Notes: generated by a model from the sequence alone, not told the origin. Positions 20,684 through 29,688 are shown, counted from the first letter of the stretch. The stretch is DNA of 56,235 nt from Bacillota bacterium (GCA_050260455.1 JBLNCF010000012.1:1-56235), one strand, 5' to 3'. Made by a program: numbers and translations.

Positions 20684-21304
20684 CTAATGCGCGAGCGCGA
20701 GTGAATGGATCCGATGTGCTCCCGCCTTGCGGAGAGCATCTTTTGCCGCCAGAAGTGTGGCTCCGGTGGTAACCACATCATCAAGGAGAATGTAGCTGAT
20801 GTCAGGGGAAATGGCCCCGTGTACGGAGAATGCGTCGCGTACATTTGTGAGTCGCTCACGGCGTGAGAGAGACGTTTGGGGTCGGGTATCACGTATGCGT
20901 ACGAGTGCCGGCTGAAGCGGAACGCTCGCTGTCTGGGCCACTGCTTCTACTTGGTTATATCCGCGTTCCCGTTTGCGTGCGGCCCCGAGGGGGACGGGTA
21001 CGACTACGTACCGCTCTTGTCCCAGTTCCGCTGATTCCTCCTCAATGGAGGCGAGATAATCCTGGAGTACCTGTGCGAGAAATTTGCGAGCGCGTGCATT
21101 GTTGTTGAACTTCGCTTCAACTACTGCCGCGCGCACCAGTCGGTGACGGTATGGCAGCAATGCCACGACTCCGGAGCGCGTTACGATAGGGGAGAGGAGG
21201 CGTCCAAATTCGATTTCTGACGCTTCGGCAACGATACGGCCGGTGTCTGTTGGTGGGAGTATGAGATCGAGAAGAGCTCGAAATGCGTGTGCGAGCGTAC
21301 GCAT
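20684..21304 (-). CDS. comF: ComF family phosphoribosyltransferase-like competence protein
   Basis: VPVPL...R.RERGYNQ, Q..LSRRERLTNV..AF, ILLDDVVTTGATL; no N-terminal Cys zinc ribbon. Confidence 0.92.
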   Translation of the reverse strand: MRTLAHAFRALLDLILPPTDTGRIVAEASEIEFGRLLSPIVTRSGVVALLPYRHRLVRAAVVEAKFNNNARARKFLAQVLQDYLASIEEESAELGQERYVVVPVPLGAARKRERGYNQVEAVAQTASVPLQPALVRIRDTRPQTSLSRRERLTNVRDAFSVHGAISPDISYILLDDVVTTGATLLAAKDALRKAGAHRIHSLALAH

Positions 21305-21311
21305 GCGCATA

Positions 21312-21346
21312 ATCATAGCCTGTGCACAGAAGCGAGATGGTACAAT
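21312..21346. promoter_or_regulatory. Back-to-back -10 boxes for comF and pilM with a central palindrome
   Basis: atcata (TATGAT on minus, 21312-17), CTGTGCACAG palindrome (21320-29), TGgTACAAT (21338-46). Confidence 0.7.
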
Positions 21347-21352
21347 CGTCCC

Positions 21353-22438
21353 ATGAGTTTTCTCGCTAAACTCTTCGGCAAGAAAAAGAGCCGGAGCGTC
21401 ATTGGCGTCGACATCGGCTCCTCTTCGCTCAAGGTCGTACAGTTACGTCGCGAAGGCGGCGTTGCGGTGCTTGAAACGTATGGTGAGCTCGCGCTCGGCC
21501 CGTATGCAGGTCTTGAAGTGGGTCAAGCAACCAATCTTCCTGCTGCAAAGATTGCCGAAACGCTCGCTGATCTCCTGCGGGAAGCAAACGTCACTACCAC
21601 CGACTCCGGTGTTTCCATTCCATTCTCGCGTACACTCCTCACCCTCATTGAACTTCCCCGGCGTGATGATCCAGAAGAGCAGAAGACCATCATCGATCTT
21701 GAGGCGCGCAAATATATTCCTGTTCCGGTATCGGAAGTCCAGCTCGACTGGTTCATTCTCCCTGAAGCACTGCCTGAAGGTGCAGCGCCATCAGAAAAAG
21801 TGCAGGTCCTCTTGGTCGCAGTTCATAACGACGAACTTCGTTTGCTTGAGAATGTGGTGAAAGGCGCGAATCTGACCGCAAGCTTCTATGAGATAGAGAT
21901 CTTCAGCACCATTCGCGCGGTAGTTGATGAGCCGGTGAAGCCAGTCCTCGTGCTTGATATCGGCGCGTCAGCCACAAAGGTATACGTCGTTGAACGGGGA
22001 GTCGTTGCACTCTCGCACAACATCCCTGAAGGCGGTCAGGACGTAACTCGCACCATCTCAAGCGCTCATGGACTCCCCCTCGCCAAAGCGGAGGAGCTTA
22101 AAAAAGAACGCGGTTTCGTGCCGCAGGAGGGTGGATACTCGAAAGCCACCATCGAGCTCGTCTTCTCACGCATTTTTGAAGAAGCGAAGCAAGCATTGAG
22201 TCAGTACGAACTGCAGCACGGCAAGAGTGTGGCGGAAATTGTCCTTACGGGTGGTGGTGGTGTGACCAAAGAACTCGCCCAGTACGCACAGTCCTTCTTC
22301 TCGATCAATGTGAAGATTGCTGACCCGTTCAGTAAGACGCAGGCGCCTGCGTTCATGACCCCGGTCTTGAAGGAGATTGGTCCCGAGTTTGCAGTTGCGG
22401 TCGGGCTTGCGCTGCGGAAGCTCGAAGAGCTCTCTTAA
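21353..22438 (+). CDS. pilM: Type IV pilus assembly ATPase-fold protein PilM
   Basis: IGVDIGSSSLKVV, VLDIGASAT, LTGGG, AVAVGLALR. Confidence 0.95.
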   Translation: MSFLAKLFGKKKSRSVIGVDIGSSSLKVVQLRREGGVAVLETYGELALGPYAGLEVGQATNLPAAKIAETLADLLREANVTTTDSGVSIPFSRTLLTLIELPRRDDPEEQKTIIDLEARKYIPVPVSEVQLDWFILPEALPEGAAPSEKVQVLLVAVHNDELRLLENVVKGANLTASFYEIEIFSTIRAVVDEPVKPVLVLDIGASATKVYVVERGVVALSHNIPEGGQDVTRTISSAHGLPLAKAEELKKERGFVPQEGGYSKATIELVFSRIFEEAKQALSQYELQHGKSVAEIVLTGGGGVTKELAQYAQSFFSINVKIADPFSKTQAPAFMTPVLKEIGPEFAVAVGLALRKLEELS

Positions 22439-22443
22439 GTGGA

Positions 22444-22452
22444 TGTGCATAA
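22444..22452 (-). promoter_or_regulatory. DnaA-box consensus TTATGCACA upstream of pilN
   Basis: tgtgcataa on the plus strand; matches TTWTNCACA. Confidence 0.55.
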
Positions 22453-22491
22453 ACCGCAGAGCAGTAGCCAAATGCTCGGTATACTAGAGTC

Positions 22492-23151
22492 GTGGCACTC
22501 CCTCCTACCATTCCGACATCGTTCGTGCCGAAACAGCCTGTCACCACGGCTCCGCATAAGCGGGTAAGTGGTGCGAACCCGTTTCTCGCGCTCGCGTACT
22601 TCATTCTGGGCGTAACTATCCTCGGTTGCTTTGCAGTGTTTGGATACCAGTTCTACCTTGAGAATGTAGCTAAGAAGAAGGCCGATGCGGTGAATGTGGC
22701 CCAGCAGCAAATCGACCAGGCCACCGTGACTGACTTTATTCGGTTGCGAGATCGGTTCTCAGCAGCTAAGGACATTCTCAATGAACACATCGTGCTCTCA
22801 CAATTCTTTGATGACCTTGAGAAGCTCACGCTCGCGACGGTGCGGTTCAAGTCTCTTACCGTTCAGGTTACGGATGATCGCAAGGCACTCATAGATATGG
22901 AGGGTACGGCCCGTACCTTTAATGCGCTTGCTGCGCAGTCCGCGGCATTCGCGAGCGACAAGCGTATTAAGCGTGCCATCTTCAGCAACATTACGGTTAA
23001 AGACGGAGGCAGCGTGGAATTCAAACTCTCTGCCGAACTCGATCCCTCGCTCGTGTTGCTCTCGGCGGCGTCGGTACAACCGGCACCTGCTGCACCGGTA
23101 CCTACCGCTCCAGCGGCCACCACGAGCCCGACTGCAACCACAACACCATGA
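22492..23151 (+). CDS. pilN: PilN-like alignment protein
   Basis: Single TM, coiled coil, ferredoxin-like C-domain (..EGTARTFNALA.Q; F.L.AEL); GTG start 6 nt after TATACT. Confidence 0.75.
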   Translation: MALPPTIPTSFVPKQPVTTAPHKRVSGANPFLALAYFILGVTILGCFAVFGYQFYLENVAKKKADAVNVAQQQIDQATVTDFIRLRDRFSAAKDILNEHIVLSQFFDDLEKLTLATVRFKSLTVQVTDDRKALIDMEGTARTFNALAAQSAAFASDKRIKRAIFSNITVKDGGSVEFKLSAELDPSLVLLSAASVQPAPAAPVPTAPAATTSPTATTTP

Positions 23152-23714
23152 TCGGACGCATACTTCCCATCGTGCTCATCCTGGTCTCCCTCGGCTTGTT
23201 CGCGGGGTACATCAGCCCTACCTATAACGGTAAGATTGTGCCGCTCCAACAGCAGATCACCCAGTTTAATCGCACGCTGGTTGCGGCAGCTGATTTCAAT
23301 CAGAAGGAAGCGCAACTTGCGAGCGATCGCAGCGCCATTCCGAGTGATGCGCTTAAGCGTCTAGAGTCCTATCTTCCGGATGGAGTTGATAATGTGCAAC
23401 TCATTCTTGATTTGAATGCGCTTGCAGCGCGGTCAGGTGTGCAGCTTTCCAACTTCGACATCGACACGAAGAGCTCTACTGAAGGTACGGATCAGTCCTC
23501 GAACGGTCAGTTACCGCTTGAATCGGGTGCCAAGCCCACCGACTCGCTCGATCTCACGGTGAAAGCGACCGGCACGTACGGTGCATTCCGCACCTTCCTC
23601 GGTGGGGTAGAGAAGAGTCTGCGCCCTCTCGACCTTGTTCAGATGTCACTTAATGATTCAGAGTCAGGCGTGTACACCTATGAGCTTACCTTCCGTATCT
23701 ACTGGCTCCATTGA
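23148..23714 (+). CDS. pilO: PilO-like alignment protein
   Basis: TM plus coiled coil, YLP...D, LTVKATGTYGAFRTFL..VEKSLRPLD. Confidence 0.85.
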   Translation: MIGRILPIVLILVSLGLFAGYISPTYNGKIVPLQQQITQFNRTLVAAADFNQKEAQLASDRSAIPSDALKRLESYLPDGVDNVQLILDLNALAARSGVQLSNFDIDTKSSTEGTDQSSNGQLPLESGAKPTDSLDLTVKATGTYGAFRTFLGGVEKSLRPLDLVQMSLNDSESGVYTYELTFRIYWLH

Positions 23715-23717
23715 TTT

Positions 23718-24002
23718 ATGAACCGAAACACCATCATCGCTATCGTTATCGGCTTGGTACTTGTGGGAGCTGCCGCGTACCTGCTCTTCCTGAAACCGTC
23801 TTCGACGGTTGCGCTCGACACGAGCGAAGCAGTAAGTCCAGACGAGATCACTTTTGTAAACCTGACTGCGCAACTCGATCCTCTCGGATTTGATGCGAGT
23901 GTTCTTGCTGACCCGCGCTTCATGGCACTGGTCGACATTCACACAGCAATACTGCCAGAAGCGACAGGACGTCGCGATCCGTTCTCTCCGCTCGGCCGGT
24001 AA
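23718..24002 (+). CDS. Small PilP-position protein
   Basis: TM anchor and GRRDPFSPL motif, reminiscent of the PilP N-terminal RDPF; lacks the PilP beta domain. Confidence 0.65.
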   Translation: MNRNTIIAIVIGLVLVGAAAYLLFLKPSSTVALDTSEAVSPDEITFVNLTAQLDPLGFDASVLADPRFMALVDIHTAILPEATGRRDPFSPLGR

Positions 24003-24012
24003 TTAGAGGAGT

Positions 24013-24021
24013 TTATCCCGC
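24013..24021 (+). promoter_or_regulatory. Degenerate DnaA-box-like site TTATCCCGC
   Basis: Starts 39 nt upstream of the pilB -10 box, the same offset as the pilin sites. Confidence 0.4.
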
Positions 24022-24044
24022 ATGCATGCATATATGCATGCATG
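24021..24044. repeat. Perfect 24-bp palindrome CATGCATGCATATATGCATGCATG
   Basis: Self-reverse-complementary; strictly alternating pyrimidine/purine over 24019-24044; ends 7 nt before TATCAT. Confidence 0.95.
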
Positions 24045-24063
24045 GAGGGAGTATCATACGAAT

Positions 24064-25836
24064 ATGAACTTGCTTTCGCTCTTGGTAGAGAAAGGAATCA
24101 TACAGTCCGGTGATGTCGCTGCCATAACAGCGGAAGCGCAGGCGCAAGAACTTCCGGTAGAGAGCGTGCTCGAGAAACGAGGAATCGCGACTACTGATGT
24201 CATGAATGCGCTTTCTGCGCATTACGGTATTCCTGTCCGCGCCATCCCGCAGAATAAAGAAATTGAGCAGGCAGCGCTCGAGTTTATCCCGCAGGAATCT
24301 GCAGAGCACTACAAATTCGTGCCGCTCGGTATTGTGGACGGCGCCCTTGAGGTGGGTATCACCGATCCAGATAACATTGAGGCGCGCGATGCGCTGCAAT
24401 TCATTTCCACGCGTGCGGGCATGCCCTACAAGCTCTTCCTCATTTCACAGGCAGACTTTAAACGTGTCATTGAGGAATACCAGAATCTTTCAGGGGTAGT
24501 GGGGGAGGCACTTTCGGAGTTTGAGGGTTCGGTAGTGGAATCCGAGGAGTCTAAGAAACTCGAAGCAAGCGAGGAAGCTGCAGCCAAGGGTGATTCGGTC
24601 GAGAACGACATTAAAGCGGACTCACCAGTTACTAAGATCGTAGCAACGGCACTTCGGTACGCCGTCGAAGGCGGTGCGTCTGACATCCATATTGAACCAT
24701 CTCCAGACAAGACGCGGGTGCGGTTCCGCATGGACGGTGAACTCCACACATCTCTCGAACTTCCGAGCAAGGTGCATGCCGCGGTCGTTGCGCGCATCAA
24801 AATCATGTCGCAGTTGCGTCTCGATGAGAAACGCAAACCGCAGGACGGCCGTTTCTCAACGGTGGTCGATAAGCGACGCATCGATTTCCGCGTTTCAACA
24901 TTCCCCACCCAGTTTGGAGAAAAAGTCGTGATGCGTATTCTCGATCGCACCAAGGCGGTCGCGAACTTGGAAACCATAGGTCTTTCTACGGAACAGCTCG
25001 CACTCATGCGGGAGATCGTGAAGGCTCCCTATGGCATCATTCTCATCTGCGGTCCGACGGGTTCCGGTAAATCGACCACCCTCTTTGCAATGCTATCGGA
25101 GCTCGACCGTGAGACCCAGAACGTGGTGTCCATCGAGGATCCGGTTGAGTACGAGATCCCTGGTGTCGCCCAGTCACAGGTTCATCCCGAGATTGGCTAC
25201 GATTTCGCCAACGGCCTACGTTCTATTCTCCGCCAGGACCCGGACGTTATTATGGTGGGCGAGATCCGCGATAAGGAAACAGCACAGCTTGCTATCCAGG
25301 CGGCACTTACCGGTCACCTGGTGTTCTCCACCATTCACACGAACAATACTGCTGGTGTCATTCCGCGCCTGATCGATATGGGTGTGGATCCGTATCTCAT
25401 TGCTCCAACCTTGGTTGCTGCTATCGGGCAACGTCTCGTGCGGAAGCTTTGTGACGGGGCAGGGCAGGAGATGCCCGTCTCCGACAGTATTAAAGGTCTC
25501 CTCAAGGAAGAGTTCGCCGATTTGCCGGAAGATGTGCGTAAGAAGATCCCTGAATTCACGCATTTCTATCGCGCGCATGCGACTCCGGATTGTCCGAATG
25601 GTACACGAGGCCGCACTGGCGTCTTCGAATTCCTGCGTATGGATAAAGACCTCGAACACGTTGTCCTTACCAATCCGGTCGAAGAGTCAGTGTACAAAGC
25701 ATCCCGCGACAAGGGCATGCTCACCATGCGTGAGGATGCTATCATTAAGGCACTAGCCGGTGAGATTCCGTTCGAGGAGGTGAATACGCTCGGCGGAACG
25801 CTCTTCCCGGAAGACGAAGAACCAACCACTACATAA
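24064..25836 (+). CDS. pilB: Type IV pilus extension ATPase PilB
   Basis: ASDIHIEP, LDEKRKPQDGRF, GPTGSGKST, LRQDPDVIMVGEIRD, STIHTN; start at ATG 24064 (TATCAT 6 nt upstream). Confidence 0.97.
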   Translation: MNLLSLLVEKGIIQSGDVAAITAEAQAQELPVESVLEKRGIATTDVMNALSAHYGIPVRAIPQNKEIEQAALEFIPQESAEHYKFVPLGIVDGALEVGITDPDNIEARDALQFISTRAGMPYKLFLISQADFKRVIEEYQNLSGVVGEALSEFEGSVVESEESKKLEASEEAAAKGDSVENDIKADSPVTKIVATALRYAVEGGASDIHIEPSPDKTRVRFRMDGELHTSLELPSKVHAAVVARIKIMSQLRLDEKRKPQDGRFSTVVDKRRIDFRVSTFPTQFGEKVVMRILDRTKAVANLETIGLSTEQLALMREIVKAPYGIILICGPTGSGKSTTLFAMLSELDRETQNVVSIEDPVEYEIPGVAQSQVHPEIGYDFANGLRSILRQDPDVIMVGEIRDKETAQLAIQAALTGHLVFSTIHTNNTAGVIPRLIDMGVDPYLIAPTLVAAIGQRLVRKLCDGAGQEMPVSDSIKGLLKEEFADLPEDVRKKIPEFTHFYRAHATPDCPNGTRGRTGVFEFLRMDKDLEHVVLTNPVEESVYKASRDKGMLTMREDAIIKALAGEIPFEEVNTLGGTLFPEDEEPTTT

Positions 25837-25840
25837 TTTT

Positions 25841-26224
25841 ATGGCTACCTACCGCTTATATCTCGTAGACGATGACCGTTTCTTGCTCGATATGTACGCG
25901 GTCAAATTCAAGGCGGCAGGACATGAAGTGACCGCGTTTCAGAATGGTGAGGAGGCGCTTACGGCGCTCCGTGAGAAGCCGGCTCCGGACGCCATGCTGC
26001 TCGATATCGTGATGCCAGGCATGGATGGTTTCGAGATTCTCCAAAAGATTCGTGACGAAAAACTCGCCCCGACCACTAAAGTCATTGTGCTCTCCAACCA
26101 GGGCCAGGAAGCAGATATCGAGAAAGCCAAGCAGCTCGGTGCGGCAGGGTACATCATCAAAGCGTCGGCGATTCCAAGCGAAGTGTTCTCCGAGACGCTT
26201 AAGATCATCGAGACGAAGGCATGA
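25841..26224 (+). CDS. Single-domain response regulator (CheY-like receiver)
   Basis: LVDDD, LLDIVMPGMDG phosphoacceptor Asp, VLSN, YIIKA. Confidence 0.95.
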   Translation: MATYRLYLVDDDRFLLDMYAVKFKAAGHEVTAFQNGEEALTALREKPAPDAMLLDIVMPGMDGFEILQKIRDEKLAPTTKVIVLSNQGQEADIEKAKQLGAAGYIIKASAIPSEVFSETLKIIETKA

Positions 26225-27276
26225 GCCAGAGCATTCGCCCGCTTTTCGACACGGTCATAAAAGAGGGAGGTTCCGATCTCCATCTTTCGGTAGGGAGTCA
26301 CCCCATCATTCGTGTAGCGGGTTCGCTTGTCCCGTTGGTACAGCAAGATGTGCTCACCGCTGCCGACACGGAGGCGATGCTCAAAGAGATTCTGCCAGAA
26401 GGACGATGGGAAGAGTTCCTTCGTGATACCGCTGTAGACTTCTCCTACGCGCATGACGACCAGAATCGTTTCCGCGTGAACGGGTACCGTGTGCAGGGAA
26501 ACGTTACGGTAGCGATGCGTCTCATCCCGCACCTGATTCGTACCTTTGCTGACCTCAATCTGCCGCCCGTGCTCGAGACATTCACCCAGCGGACCCAGGG
26601 ATTCTTCCTTGTAGTGGGACCCGTAGGACAGGGTAAATCGACAACGCTTGCGGCAATCATCGATCGTATTAACGAGACTCGTGCCGAACATATCGTTACC
26701 ATCGAGGATCCGGTGGAATACCTTTTCGAGCAGAAGAAATCCCTCATTCATCAGCGCGAAGTGCACATTGATGCTCCAGATTTCCATGCTGCACTCCAAG
26801 CGGCCTTCCGCGAAGACGTGAACGTCATCATGGTGGGTGAAATGCGCGATCAGGAAACCATTTCTTCTGCCGTGACTGCTGCTGAAACGGGCCATCTTGT
26901 GCTTTCCACACTTCACACCAATAACGCGGCGCAAACTATCGATCGTATTATCGATATGTTCCCGCCGAGTCAGCAGGGACAGGTGCGAGTGCAGCTTGCT
27001 GGTTCCTTGGCCGGCATCTTCTCGCAGCGCCTCGTGCCACGCATTTCAGGCGGTCTCATCCCTGCGTACGAACTCCTGATTAACAACAGCGCTATTGCGA
27101 ACCTTATTCGCGAAGGACGCACCCATGAGATCACCACCGTCGTACAAACGAGCTCGCAGGACGGTATGATTGATATGGACCGTTCACTTGCTGAACTCGT
27201 GCGTCGCGGCGAAGTCACGATCGAGCACGCGTACGAACGCGCGATCGATCCGAAGACCTTCGAACGCTATCTATAA
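26221..27276 (+). CDS. pilT: Type IV pilus retraction ATPase PilT
   Basis: SDLHL, GPVGQGKSTT, TIEDPVEY, HQREV, VGEMRD, TLHTN, AIANLIRE. Confidence 0.96.
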   Translation: MSQSIRPLFDTVIKEGGSDLHLSVGSHPIIRVAGSLVPLVQQDVLTAADTEAMLKEILPEGRWEEFLRDTAVDFSYAHDDQNRFRVNGYRVQGNVTVAMRLIPHLIRTFADLNLPPVLETFTQRTQGFFLVVGPVGQGKSTTLAAIIDRINETRAEHIVTIEDPVEYLFEQKKSLIHQREVHIDAPDFHAALQAAFREDVNVIMVGEMRDQETISSAVTAAETGHLVLSTLHTNNAAQTIDRIIDMFPPSQQGQVRVQLAGSLAGIFSQRLVPRISGGLIPAYELLINNSAIANLIREGRTHEITTVVQTSSQDGMIDMDRSLAELVRRGEVTIEHAYERAIDPKTFERYL

Positions 27277-27282
27277 ACTGCC

Positions 27283-28488
27283 ATGTTGTTCACCTATCGA
27301 GCACTGGATACCGACGGGCACGAACGAGAGGGAACCATTGAGGCGCTGTCGATGGATATAGCCGTCTCTACTCTCCAACGACGCAACCTTATTGTTTCCT
27401 CGATTGCACCCTCAACGAAGAAGTCGTTTACCGACAGTCTGTCCTTCATCTCTCCTGTTTCCAATAAGGAGGTGGTTATTTTGTCGCGACAGATTGCGAC
27501 TCTGTTCGAGGCTCAAGTCTCGGCACTTCGTGTGTTCCGGCTCCTTGCGGCAGAAGTCGAAAACAAACATCTTGCCGATATCCTCACACAGGTTGCTGAC
27601 GATTTGCAGGGAGGTACTTCCATAAGTAAAGCGCTTTCACGACATCCGAAGGTGTTCGAAGCGTTCTATGTGAACATGGTGCGCGCGGGCGAGGAATCCG
27701 GAAAGCTTTCCGAAACCTTTGGTTATCTTGCTGACTATCTCGATCGTTCCTACGAAGTTGCGAACAAGGCACAGAATGCGCTTATTTACCCAGCGTTCGT
27801 GATCGCGGTGTTCGTCATCGTGATGGCACTCATGCTCACGCTCGTTATCCCGAAGATTAGTGCCATTCTCCTCGATTCAGGGCAGAAGATACCTATCTAT
27901 ACACAGATAGTGATCGGCATCTCCACCGCAGTCACTAAATATGGAGTGTTCGTACTTATTGCGCTCCTTGCGGGTGGTTTCTTTGCATTTCGCTCGGCAC
28001 AGACGCCTGCCGGCCAGCTCATGTTTGACAGCATGAAGCTCGATATTCCATTCATTGGCGATCTGTATCAAAAGCTCTATCTTTCACGCATTGCAGACAA
28101 CTTTGCGACTATGCTTGTCTCGGGCGTGCCGGTCGTTGAAGCGGTCGACATCACCGCTTCGGTGGTGGACAGTCCTATTTATGCAGGCATCCTGCGTCAG
28201 GTAGGAGAGGATGTGAAAGGGGGTCTCTCTATATCGGATGCACTTGCTCGTCACGAGGAGATTCCCGGCATCATGAGCGCGATGGTGCGTGTTGGTGAAG
28301 AAACGGGCGAACTCGGTAGCATTCTCGCTACGCTCGCGAAGTTCTATCAGCGCGAAGTGTCTACTTCTGTCGACACGCTCGTCGATCTCATTGAGCCACT
28401 CATGATCGTCATTCTCGGTCTTGGCGTCGGTATTCTCCTTGCAGCAGTGCTCATCCCGATCTACAACCTCGCAGGTTCGATCTCGTAA
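27283..28488 (+). CDS. pilC: Type IV pilus platform protein PilC (GspF family)
   Basis: Two GspF repeats: GEESGKL, ALIYP, GEETGEL, LIEP. Confidence 0.96.
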   Translation: MLFTYRALDTDGHEREGTIEALSMDIAVSTLQRRNLIVSSIAPSTKKSFTDSLSFISPVSNKEVVILSRQIATLFEAQVSALRVFRLLAAEVENKHLADILTQVADDLQGGTSISKALSRHPKVFEAFYVNMVRAGEESGKLSETFGYLADYLDRSYEVANKAQNALIYPAFVIAVFVIVMALMLTLVIPKISAILLDSGQKIPIYTQIVIGISTAVTKYGVFVLIALLAGGFFAFRSAQTPAGQLMFDSMKLDIPFIGDLYQKLYLSRIADNFATMLVSGVPVVEAVDITASVVDSPIYAGILRQVGEDVKGGLSISDALARHEEIPGIMSAMVRVGEETGELGSILATLAKFYQREVSTSVDTLVDLIEPLMIVILGLGVGILLAAVLIPIYNLAGSIS

Positions 28489-28498
28489 TTACTTCGTG

Positions 28499-28507
28499 TT
28501 ATCCACA
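28499..28507 (+). promoter_or_regulatory. Perfect DnaA box TTATCCACA upstream of pilin 1
   Basis: Exact consensus; starts 38 nt before TACAAT (28537-42). Confidence 0.65.
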
Positions 28508-28594
28508 CGCAACAACGCGTACGTGCGTTTCTCTCGTACAATAGATTACAAGCGGATATTACTCATAACCCGCGCATAATAAATCGATTTATTT

Positions 28595-29068
28595 ATGAAC
28601 CTTGTATCTTCAATCCGAAAGGGACACGTTCGTAAGGGTCACCTCACCGGTTTCACCCTTATCGAACTTCTCGTCGTGATCGCCATCATCGGCATTCTCT
28701 CCTCGGTTGTGCTTGCTTCGCTCAACACTGCACGTGCCAAGGGCGCCGATGCGGCCATCAAGTCGAACATCGACAACGCGCGCGCACAGGCTGAGCTCTA
28801 CTATGACAATGGTCAGACTTACCTCGGTGTCTGTGCAGCCGCTTCGAGCGCAACTCCAGGCGGTATTGCAACCATGAAGAGCGGTGCAACTGCTGCCGGT
28901 GCTTCCCAGGTCTACTGCGCCGACAGCGCTACGTCCTGGATCCTTGCAGCTAACCTCAAGACGGGCGGCTCCTTCTGTGCTGACAATACGGGAACCTCGA
29001 CCTACAAGTCGATCACGGTTCCGTCTTCGGGAGCTACTGCAACCTCCTGCAACGTCACGAGCTACTAA
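28595..29068 (+). CDS. pilA: Type IV pilin 1 (probable major pilin)
   Basis: G|FTLIELLVVIAIIGILSSVV class III signal; own promoter, A/T-rich leader and terminator; C-terminal Cys residues. Confidence 0.93.
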   Translation: MNLVSSIRKGHVRKGHLTGFTLIELLVVIAIIGILSSVVLASLNTARAKGADAAIKSNIDNARAQAELYYDNGQTYLGVCAAASSATPGGIATMKSGATAAGASQVYCADSATSWILAANLKTGGSFCADNTGTSTYKSITVPSSGATATSCNVTSY

Positions 29069-29086
29069 TCAGATAGTTAGAGAAGG

Positions 29087-29112
29087 AAAACCGCCTCACG
29101 AGGGCGGTTTTT
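29087..29112 (+). terminator. Terminator after pilin 1
   Basis: aaaaccgcc...ggcggttttt with U-tract. Confidence 0.85.
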
Positions 29113-29120
29113 CTTTATGG

Positions 29121-29129
29121 CTATCCACC
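29121..29129 (+). promoter_or_regulatory. DnaA-box-like site CTATCCACC upstream of pilin 2
   Basis: 7/9 match; starts 39 nt before TATACT (29160-65). Confidence 0.5.
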
Positions 29130-29172
29130 AGGATGTAATTTCGATGCGGGGGCACACGGTATACTGGAAACC

Positions 29173-29688
29173 ATGACATCCTCTGATTCCCGAGGTTTTA
29201 CCCTCATTGAGCTTCTCGTTGTGATTGCCATCATCGGCATCCTCTCCTCGGTGGCTATCGGCTCGCTCATGCTTGGCCGCCTGAAGGCAGCTGATGCAGC
29301 GATACAGTCTGACCTTCATGCAATTGCGTCGCAGATGGAGATTTACTACACGAGCAATAATAATTTCGGGACTACCTATAACCAAACGTCAGCACTCTCG
29401 GTGGTGCCCACAACCGGAACGAGTCTGTACGTTACTGATACGGTCATCAATAACGCGCTCAAGGATGCCATGAAGCAGAGCGGATCGGGACAAAGCGCGT
29501 GGGCTGCTACCGGCAAGGTCGCTGGCTCAAGCGGAACCATCGCATCAACGTGGGCTGTTGCTGTACGCCTTAAGAGTGACAGTAGTTCCGCGTGGTGCAT
29601 CGACTCTGGGGGAACGGGTGAGAAGATCACATTCTCCGCTTCCTCGAATCCTCTTGGTGGCAACACTGCGCCCGCCCAGTGTCCATAG
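29173..29688 (+). CDS. Type IV pilin 2
   Basis: G|FTLIELLVVIAIIGILSSVA; WCIDS.G and terminal Cys. Confidence 0.93.
   Translation: MTSSDSRGFTLIELLVVIAIIGILSSVAIGSLMLGRLKAADAAIQSDLHAIASQMEIYYTSNNNFGTTYNQTSALSVVPTTGTSLYVTDTVINNALKDAMKQSGSGQSAWAATGKVAGSSGTIASTWAVAVRLKSDSSSAWCIDSGGTGEKITFSASSNPLGGNTAPAQCP

Follow-up and report, generated by a model that had tools for sequence, protein, structure and literature searches.

The window analysed here (contig C12:1-56235, 56,235 nucleotides) comes from a genome of 690 kb in 18 contigs with 54% G+C. It contains a type IV pilus (T4P) gene cluster in which several promoters carry a 9-bp word that matches or resembles the DnaA box, TT(A/T)TNCACA, a consensus that is degenerate at positions 3 and 5. 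The relatives of its PilC protein are metagenome-assembled genomes labelled Paceibacteria, Parcubacteria or Kaiserbacteria. Gene identities in the window were taken from Pfam matches and are listed with their coordinates in Table 1. The order of the pilus genes is kept in every related locus examined (100 loci), and the region from the pilN-like gene through pilC (22492..28488, + strand) is probably a single transcription unit in most relatives.

An initial annotation of this DNA had reported four DnaA-box-like motifs upstream of pilin 1, pilin 2, pilB and pilN, and the four words (starting at 28499, 29121, 24013 and 22444) were read from the sequence exactly as described, with the same offsets to the -10 hexamers. 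The accompanying claim that they form one fixed-position element holds for pilin 1, pilin 2 and pilN, where the box is conserved, but fails for pilB, where the word is part of a palindrome and is neither conserved nor a good match. At the promoters of pilin 1, pilin 2 and pilN a box at a fixed position is almost certainly real.

Boxes and promoters of the pilus cluster

All transcription start sites referred to here are predictions, set ~7 nt after each -10 hexamer. Across the genome, -10 hexamers are concentrated 6-9 nt ahead of start codons, Shine-Dalgarno-like sequences are found in only ~12% of genes, and the ATG of dnaA is preceded by TATACT at 9 nt. Leaderless gene starts thus appear to be common in this genome, and this geometry supports the -10 assignments in the pilus cluster. 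The mRNAs of pilN and pilin 2 are predicted to be leaderless and that of pilin 1 to have a 5' untranslated region of ~46 nt. The statement in the initial annotation that the pil promoters lack a -35 box was borne out, as no canonical -35/-10 pair was found in the boxed pilus spacers. The box itself was rejected as a -35 element. A sigma-70 -35 hexamer precedes the -10 by 16-18 nt and has a fixed orientation, whereas the gap between the end of the box and the -10 is 27-31 nt and the orientation of the box flips between clades.

Table 1. Coordinates of the pilus genes, boxes and promoter elements, and of related features on other contigs. Positions without a contig name are those of the window; spans relative to transcription starts are predicted.
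Feature	Position	Strand	Remarks
pilM box TTATGCGCA, one mismatch, reverse	21304-21312	-	37 nt before TACAAT
-10 hexamer TACAAT of pilM	21341-21346		
pilM	21353-22438		ATG start
pilN box TGTGCATAA (TTATGCACA on the minus strand)	22444-22452	-	matches TTWTNCACA; about -48 to -40
-10 hexamer TATACT of pilN	22480-22485	+	36 nt from box start
pilN-like gene	22492-23151	+	GTG start
pilO	23148-23714	+	
orfX	23718-24002	+	small open reading frame (ORF)
putative pilB 'box' TTATCCCGC	24013-24021	+	39 nt before TATCAT; not regarded as a DnaA box
34-nt imperfect palindrome, core ATGCATGCATATATGCATGCAT	24016-24049		between orfX and pilB; fold -22.1 kcal/mol
-10-like TATCAT	24052-24057	+	6 nt before the pilB ATG
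pilB	24064-25836	+	ATG start
response regulator	25841-26224	+	receiver (REC) domain only; Pfam
pilT	26221-27276	+	
pilC	27283-28488	+	
pilin 1 box TTATCCACA, exact	28499-28507	+	about -50 to -42
-10 hexamer TACAAT of pilin 1	28537-28542	+	38 nt from box start
pilin 1	28595-29068	+	major type IV pilin; ATG start; Pfam N_methyl match; first pilin after pilC in all relatives
intrinsic terminator, hairpin and U tract	29082-29116	+	3' of pilin 1; RNA fold -21.5 kcal/mol
pilin 2 box CTATCCACC, weak, two mismatches	29121-29129	+	about -52 to -43
-10 hexamer TATACT of pilin 2	29160-29165	+	39 nt from box start
pilin 2	29173-29688	+	ATG start; N_methyl match and weak ComP_DUS-like match
dnaA	C7:52833-54188		full-length DnaA, 451 aa
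stand-alone DnaA domain IV protein	C10:72126-72479	-	118 aa; Bac_DnaA_C; outside the window
second PilB/GspE-like ATPase	C7, ~14.5 kb plus-strand position (reverse-complement index 66881)	-	583 aa
further PilC paralogue	C7:11412-12455		
further PilC paralogue	C2:11834-12928		
exact TTATCCACA box	C12:58930		upstream of ftsE-ftsX
exact TTATCCACA box	C17:7443		overlaps the -35 of an NrdH-like glutaredoxin gene
exact TTATCCACA pair	C7:24157, 24178		between tRNA-Gly and tRNA-Pro
exact TTATCCACA box	C15:158		upstream of a lysine-rich gene truncated at the end of the contig
exact TTATCCACA boxes	C15:52463, C17:41977		without a clear downstream gene

Conservation of the box in related loci

The element was followed in the T4P loci of 40 species representatives, of which 24 belong to the same genus and 16 to different families within the order. 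An exact TTATCCACA is present between pilC and the first pilin gene in 28 of these loci and a one-mismatch copy in nine more (37/40 in total). Counted from the first base of the box, the -10 (TACAAT, TATAAT or TATACT) follows at 38 or 39 nt, and cgTACAAT/TATAAT is kept at this fixed distance. A further sample of 73 genus-level loci, used for the pilin promoter, has the box in 70, with an offset of 38 nt in 55 and of 39 nt in 15. The remainder of the spacer and the flanks drift freely, apart from preferences for a G on the 5' side and a C on the 3' side of the box.

High-affinity boxes outside oriC titrate DnaA in E. coli, and it could be suggested that the boxes described here are likewise DnaA-titration or chromosome-organisation sites of the datA type, with their proximity to promoters being incidental. 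The exact boxes are few and scattered in this genome, as such a role would allow. However, the boxes keep their distance from the -10 to within 1 nt even as the sequence in between drifts freely, and there is one box per promoter rather than a cluster. Two relatives (L038 and L054) have an insertion of ~900 nt between pilC and the pilin gene, flanked by short inverted repeats and with a transposase-like ORF inside, and despite this insertion the exact box persists ~40 nt before a -10-like hexamer. We consider titration a very improbable explanation. A datA-like locus in the strict sense, with a cluster of at least four boxes and no fixed relation to a promoter, was rejected on the same grounds.

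In most families of the class (loci L111-L147, for example L115, L117 and L119) the 5' leader of the major pilin contains a further conserved word, AAGGTCG(A), roughly 15-40 nt downstream of the -10 as judged by eye. In this genus it is replaced by AGCGGA...CCGC (28551-28573 in the window). The word may be an element of the RNA or another operator.

At pilN, nearly all relatives keep the sequence cgTATACT 6-10 nt ahead of the start codon, and it is for this reason that the transcript is predicted to be leaderless. A TTWTNCACA box is located 35-41 nt before this -10 in 21/38 loci, and a one-mismatch box is found in 8 more. The orientation of the box varies. In the closest clade, which includes this genome, it is reversed (TGTG[CT]ATAA, offset 35-37), the remaining genus members have it forward (TTTT[GA]CACA, offset 39-40), and in other families it occurs in either orientation. 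Alignments of pilN anchored on the -10 have a jitter of 1 nt, which makes the information content per column uninformative. Substitutions were counted in 24 pilN sites that were picked solely by their match to the exact TTATCCACA. These sites have 39 mismatches, which are distributed over positions 1 to 9 as 0, 0, 15, 0, 23, 1, 0, 0 and 0, so that positions 3 and 5, at which TT(A/T)TNCACA is degenerate, account for 38 of the 39. In a control window 60-70 nt upstream at the pilN loci no site with two or fewer mismatches to TTATCCACA was found. Since the mismatches are almost confined to these two positions, the protein that binds the site would be expected to have the specificity of DnaA, and this is the strongest argument that can be made from sequence alone.

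How much of this could be due to chance? Short AT-rich words near promoters may come to resemble a DnaA box, and such an explanation is adequate for the pilB site. The word is also not over-represented in the window, where there are six matches with one mismatch or fewer against 8.2 expected, and the significance of the boxes consequently rests on their position and conservation and not on their number. In 41 T4P loci of 11.7 kb each there are 80 consensus boxes, of which ~51 are located in the pilM-pilN and pilC-pilin spacers, and those outside the two spacers equal the random expectation of 28.6. The sites at pilin 1, pilN and pilin 2 are conserved roughly 30- to 80-fold above chance, which refutes a chance resemblance for these three; as a general explanation it deserves practically no weight.

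The site upstream of pilin 2 is a weaker box. In most relatives pilin 2 directly follows pilin 1 and has no promoter of its own. Hairpins equivalent to the terminator behind pilin 1 are present in relatives, and where the terminator is accompanied by a -10 for pilin 2, a weaker box is usually found after the terminator, ~35-43 nt before the -10. The variants observed there are CTATCCACA, TTATGCACA, TTATCCACC and TTATCCCCA, with zero or one mismatch, and pilin 2 boxes are found only in relatives where pilin 2 has its own promoter. Because these relatives carry box variants at a similar distance from the -10, the 29121 site is probably functional, if weak.

The situation at pilB is different. 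The three mismatches of the proposed box are at positions 7-9, that is in the CACA half, and a similar word at this offset was seen in one relative only (L033). In most relatives the stop codon of orfX abuts the ATG of pilB, leaving no promoter there, and the pilB box of the initial annotation was accordingly dropped. By the same token, the motor genes would come under the box only by read-through transcription from the boxed pilN promoter, which is the probable arrangement. As judged from these comparisons, the pilB site is no more than chance. The CCCGC of the word is the foot of the 34-nt palindrome, whose core ATGCATGCATATATGCATGCAT occurs once in the genome and is missing from relatives. 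This palindrome could be an operator or an RNA hairpin. TATCAT before pilB is a possible strain-specific leaderless promoter, in keeping with the geometry of leaderless starts genome-wide, and the palindrome overlies the -35 region of this possible promoter.

A one-mismatch reverse box is also located upstream of the pilM -10 in this genome. It is not kept in genus relatives and for this reason may be due to chance. Of 27 loci from other orders of the class, 13 have an exact reverse box 37-40 nt before the pilM -10. Among 112 leaderless-type promoters genome-wide, a consensus box at 35-41 nt is found only at pilN. One-mismatch boxes among the 112 include those of pilM and of the second PilB paralogue on contig C7, a PilB/GspE-like ATPase gene whose leaderless TATACT is preceded at 35 nt by the reverse box TTATACGCA. 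Two further PilC paralogues are encoded elsewhere in the genome.

The breadth of the association was assessed by searching for a strict-consensus box before the major pilin, for which chance predicts 0.2-0.5 loci per group. Such a box is found in 16/23 loci of the same genus, in 12/16 loci of other families of the order and in 23/39 loci of other orders of the class, 21 of the latter having a -10 at 33-43 nt with the box in either orientation. In other classes of Patescibacteria it is found in 1/19 loci, and none of these has the promoter geometry. A phylum-wide phenomenon was rejected, as the association is unseen, for the pilin after pilC, in 19-20 families of other classes. Since boxes recur at the pilin and at pilM in other orders, the association between the box and pilus promoters is, on these comparisons, old and class-wide in Paceibacteria but not phylum-wide in the sample.

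Candidate proteins for binding the box

The genome encodes a single full-length DnaA. It matches B. subtilis DnaA (8btg) with E = 6e-99, and the recognition motif PRQ...P.IG...GGRDHTTVIH is identical. In most of 30 genus loci, consensus boxes precede dnaA by ~84 nt and recur between dnaA and dnaN, and in this genome TTTTCCACA is located upstream of dnaA. The restriction of substitutions to positions 3 and 5, the conserved domain IV motif and the boxes at dnaA make DnaA the best candidate, and it is likely to be the protein that binds the pilus-promoter boxes. A single asymmetric 9-mer that is used in both orientations also fits a binder that acts as a monomer through domain IV.

Boxes are found at other places in the genome as well. 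Five to six of the seven exact TTATCCACA boxes and 15 of the 31 consensus boxes are intergenic, where spacers make up ~9% of the DNA; these counts are approximate since genome-wide genes were called with a crude longest-ORF caller. The box upstream of ftsE recurs as TTATCC[AC]CA in ~10 of roughly 21 other genus loci examined. An Rfam scan at the other intergenic boxes gave tRNAs only. In four relatives that have both on one contig (G017, G037, G044 and G055), dnaA and the pilus locus are ~120-157 kb apart. One genome of the same genus (G003) has a dnaA gene (C1:301455-302804) with 8 TGA, 1 TAG and 1 TAA codons in frame and a pilC gene (C1:162135-163338) with several in-frame TGA codons, which points either to a decaying or poor assembly or to TGA being read differently in that genome.

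It may be asked whether another sequence-specific regulator, conserved in the class, reads the 9-mer, in which case its identity with the DnaA box would result from convergence or from deliberate competition with DnaA. The limitation of the box-pilin association to one class would fit a class-specific factor, as DnaA is universal. In addition, the pilin box is kept at the exact TTATCCACA and its position 5 is invariant (36/36), a stricter requirement than that of DnaA. At pilN, on the other hand, the substitutions follow the known tolerance of DnaA. Bacterial regulators are predominantly dimers, for which a single asymmetric 9-mer would be unusual, and the cluster contains no conserved gene for a DNA-binding protein, its response regulator consisting of a receiver domain only. 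A perfect box would be expected to bind DnaA anyway, given the conserved domain IV. Another regulator is an unlikely explanation overall.

A second candidate is specific to this strain, and it would give a concrete form to the other TATCC-binding factor that the initial annotation allowed for. The stand-alone DnaA domain IV protein of 118 aa has a Bac_DnaA_C score of 97 bits, compared to 92 for domain IV of DnaA itself, and retains all the recognition residues (RPRQ, LPTIG and GGRDHTTVLH). Its gene adjoins a tRNA gene after an rsmH-ftsI-murF cluster, and the ATG is preceded at 6 nt by GGAGG, a good ribosome-binding site. These features would be expected of a protein that is the main occupant of the boxes in this genome, as a mimic or competitor of DnaA. 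However, it is absent from 60 relatives and from 250 genomes of the class, and it is rare among 5.8 billion proteins, with the closest homologues (58-64% identical) on a few metagenome contigs. Because of this absence it cannot explain the conserved element and was rejected as the conserved binder, and that it is the main occupant even here seems rather improbable. At most it may modulate the system in this strain.

With DnaA as the preferred binder, the following mechanism can be proposed. The T4P cluster would be transcribed from the promoters of pilN, pilin 1 and pilin 2, which have a good -10 and no -35, and in each of which a single 9-bp box begins 35-40 nt ahead of the -10, at roughly -50 to -42. 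The cell's own DnaA would bind the box as a monomer through domain IV and would touch or reshape RNA polymerase, thereby setting the level of pilin and pilus-machinery transcription. Action of DnaA as a transcription factor at the pilus boxes is the best explanation of the data, and we hold it with moderate confidence. We lean slightly towards activation as the effect, because there is no -35 and the box is located just upstream of where a -35 would be. Repression or an architectural role would be compatible with the sequence as well.

Several observations weigh against this interpretation. The compared sequences share ancestry, and the raw counts given above overstate the number of independent events. 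The association with the pilin was not seen in the sampled other classes of Patescibacteria. In this genome the 118-aa protein should bind the same boxes as DnaA. The centre of the box, near -46, corresponds neither to a class I (-61.5) nor to a class II (-41.5) activator site, and the flip in orientation argues against one fixed protein-protein contact and would equally fit repression or an architectural role.

DnaA boxes and the possible control of pili in Paceibacteria

DnaA is an established transcription factor. It acts at dnaA, nrdAB and mioC in E. coli, at dnaA and sda in B. subtilis, and at gcrA, ftsZ and podJ in Caulobacter, where it reaches the pili indirectly through podJ. The pilus promoters described here share with these promoters the same 9-bp word with its tolerated variants, the promoter-proximal location of the boxes, a canonical DnaA and boxes at dnaA. 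They are unlike them in that the targets are T4P structural genes (the major pilin, the second pilin and the pilN/pilM operon) and in that one box, at a fixed position of -50 to -42 and without a -35, is kept across a whole class of the candidate phyla radiation (CPR). In the full texts searched, no paper was found that links DnaA boxes to pilin promoters or that describes CPR promoter motifs.

Other known systems resemble the pilus promoters in part. As in class I and class II activator promoters of the CRP type, the -35 is weak or absent and a single upstream site has a helically fixed distance to the -10, but the site here is centred near -46, asymmetric, of the size of a monomer site and used in both orientations. 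The recognition word, including high-affinity exact copies, is that of oriC and of datA/DARS, whereas the boxes here are single and lack an AT-rich unwinding element. That oriC is located elsewhere, as the initial annotation had supposed, follows from the cumulative GC skew, which rises monotonically in the window; dnaA is on another contig (C7), and with single boxes at each promoter an origin in the window was rejected. The major pilin gene pilA of Proteobacteria is similarly under dedicated upstream transcriptional control, by PilR/RpoN and PilS-PilR. Unlike that system, the pilin promoter here has no -24/-12 elements and no enhancer-binding protein, and combines a sigma-70-type -10 with a DnaA box.

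To attach to their hosts, and probably also to take up DNA, CPR/Patescibacteria rely on type IV pili. Most of them are uncultured and few regulators can be recognised in them, and their regulation is barely known. Transcription factors are very few in Paceibacteria. Tentatively, and with rather less confidence than for DnaA acting at the boxes, it can be proposed that DnaA was recruited in Paceibacteria as a direct master regulator of the pilus, working through a single promoter-phased box at each of the pilin and pilM/pilN promoters, that pilus assembly follows the DnaA-ATP cycle, and that the domain IV protein competes with DnaA in this strain.

In Paceibacteria genomes the motif (box, ~29 nt, -10) can serve as a marker with which the promoter and gene of the expressed major pilin are found. 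The hypothesis is testable without cultivation, as recombinant DnaA and synthetic promoters would be enough. The boxes suggest that the replication machinery may have control over pilus production, and a class-wide, position-conserved DnaA-box element offers a concrete and testable link between replication and the surface organelle that defines the lifestyle of these organisms. If this link is true, host attachment and DNA uptake would follow the DnaA-ATP cycle.

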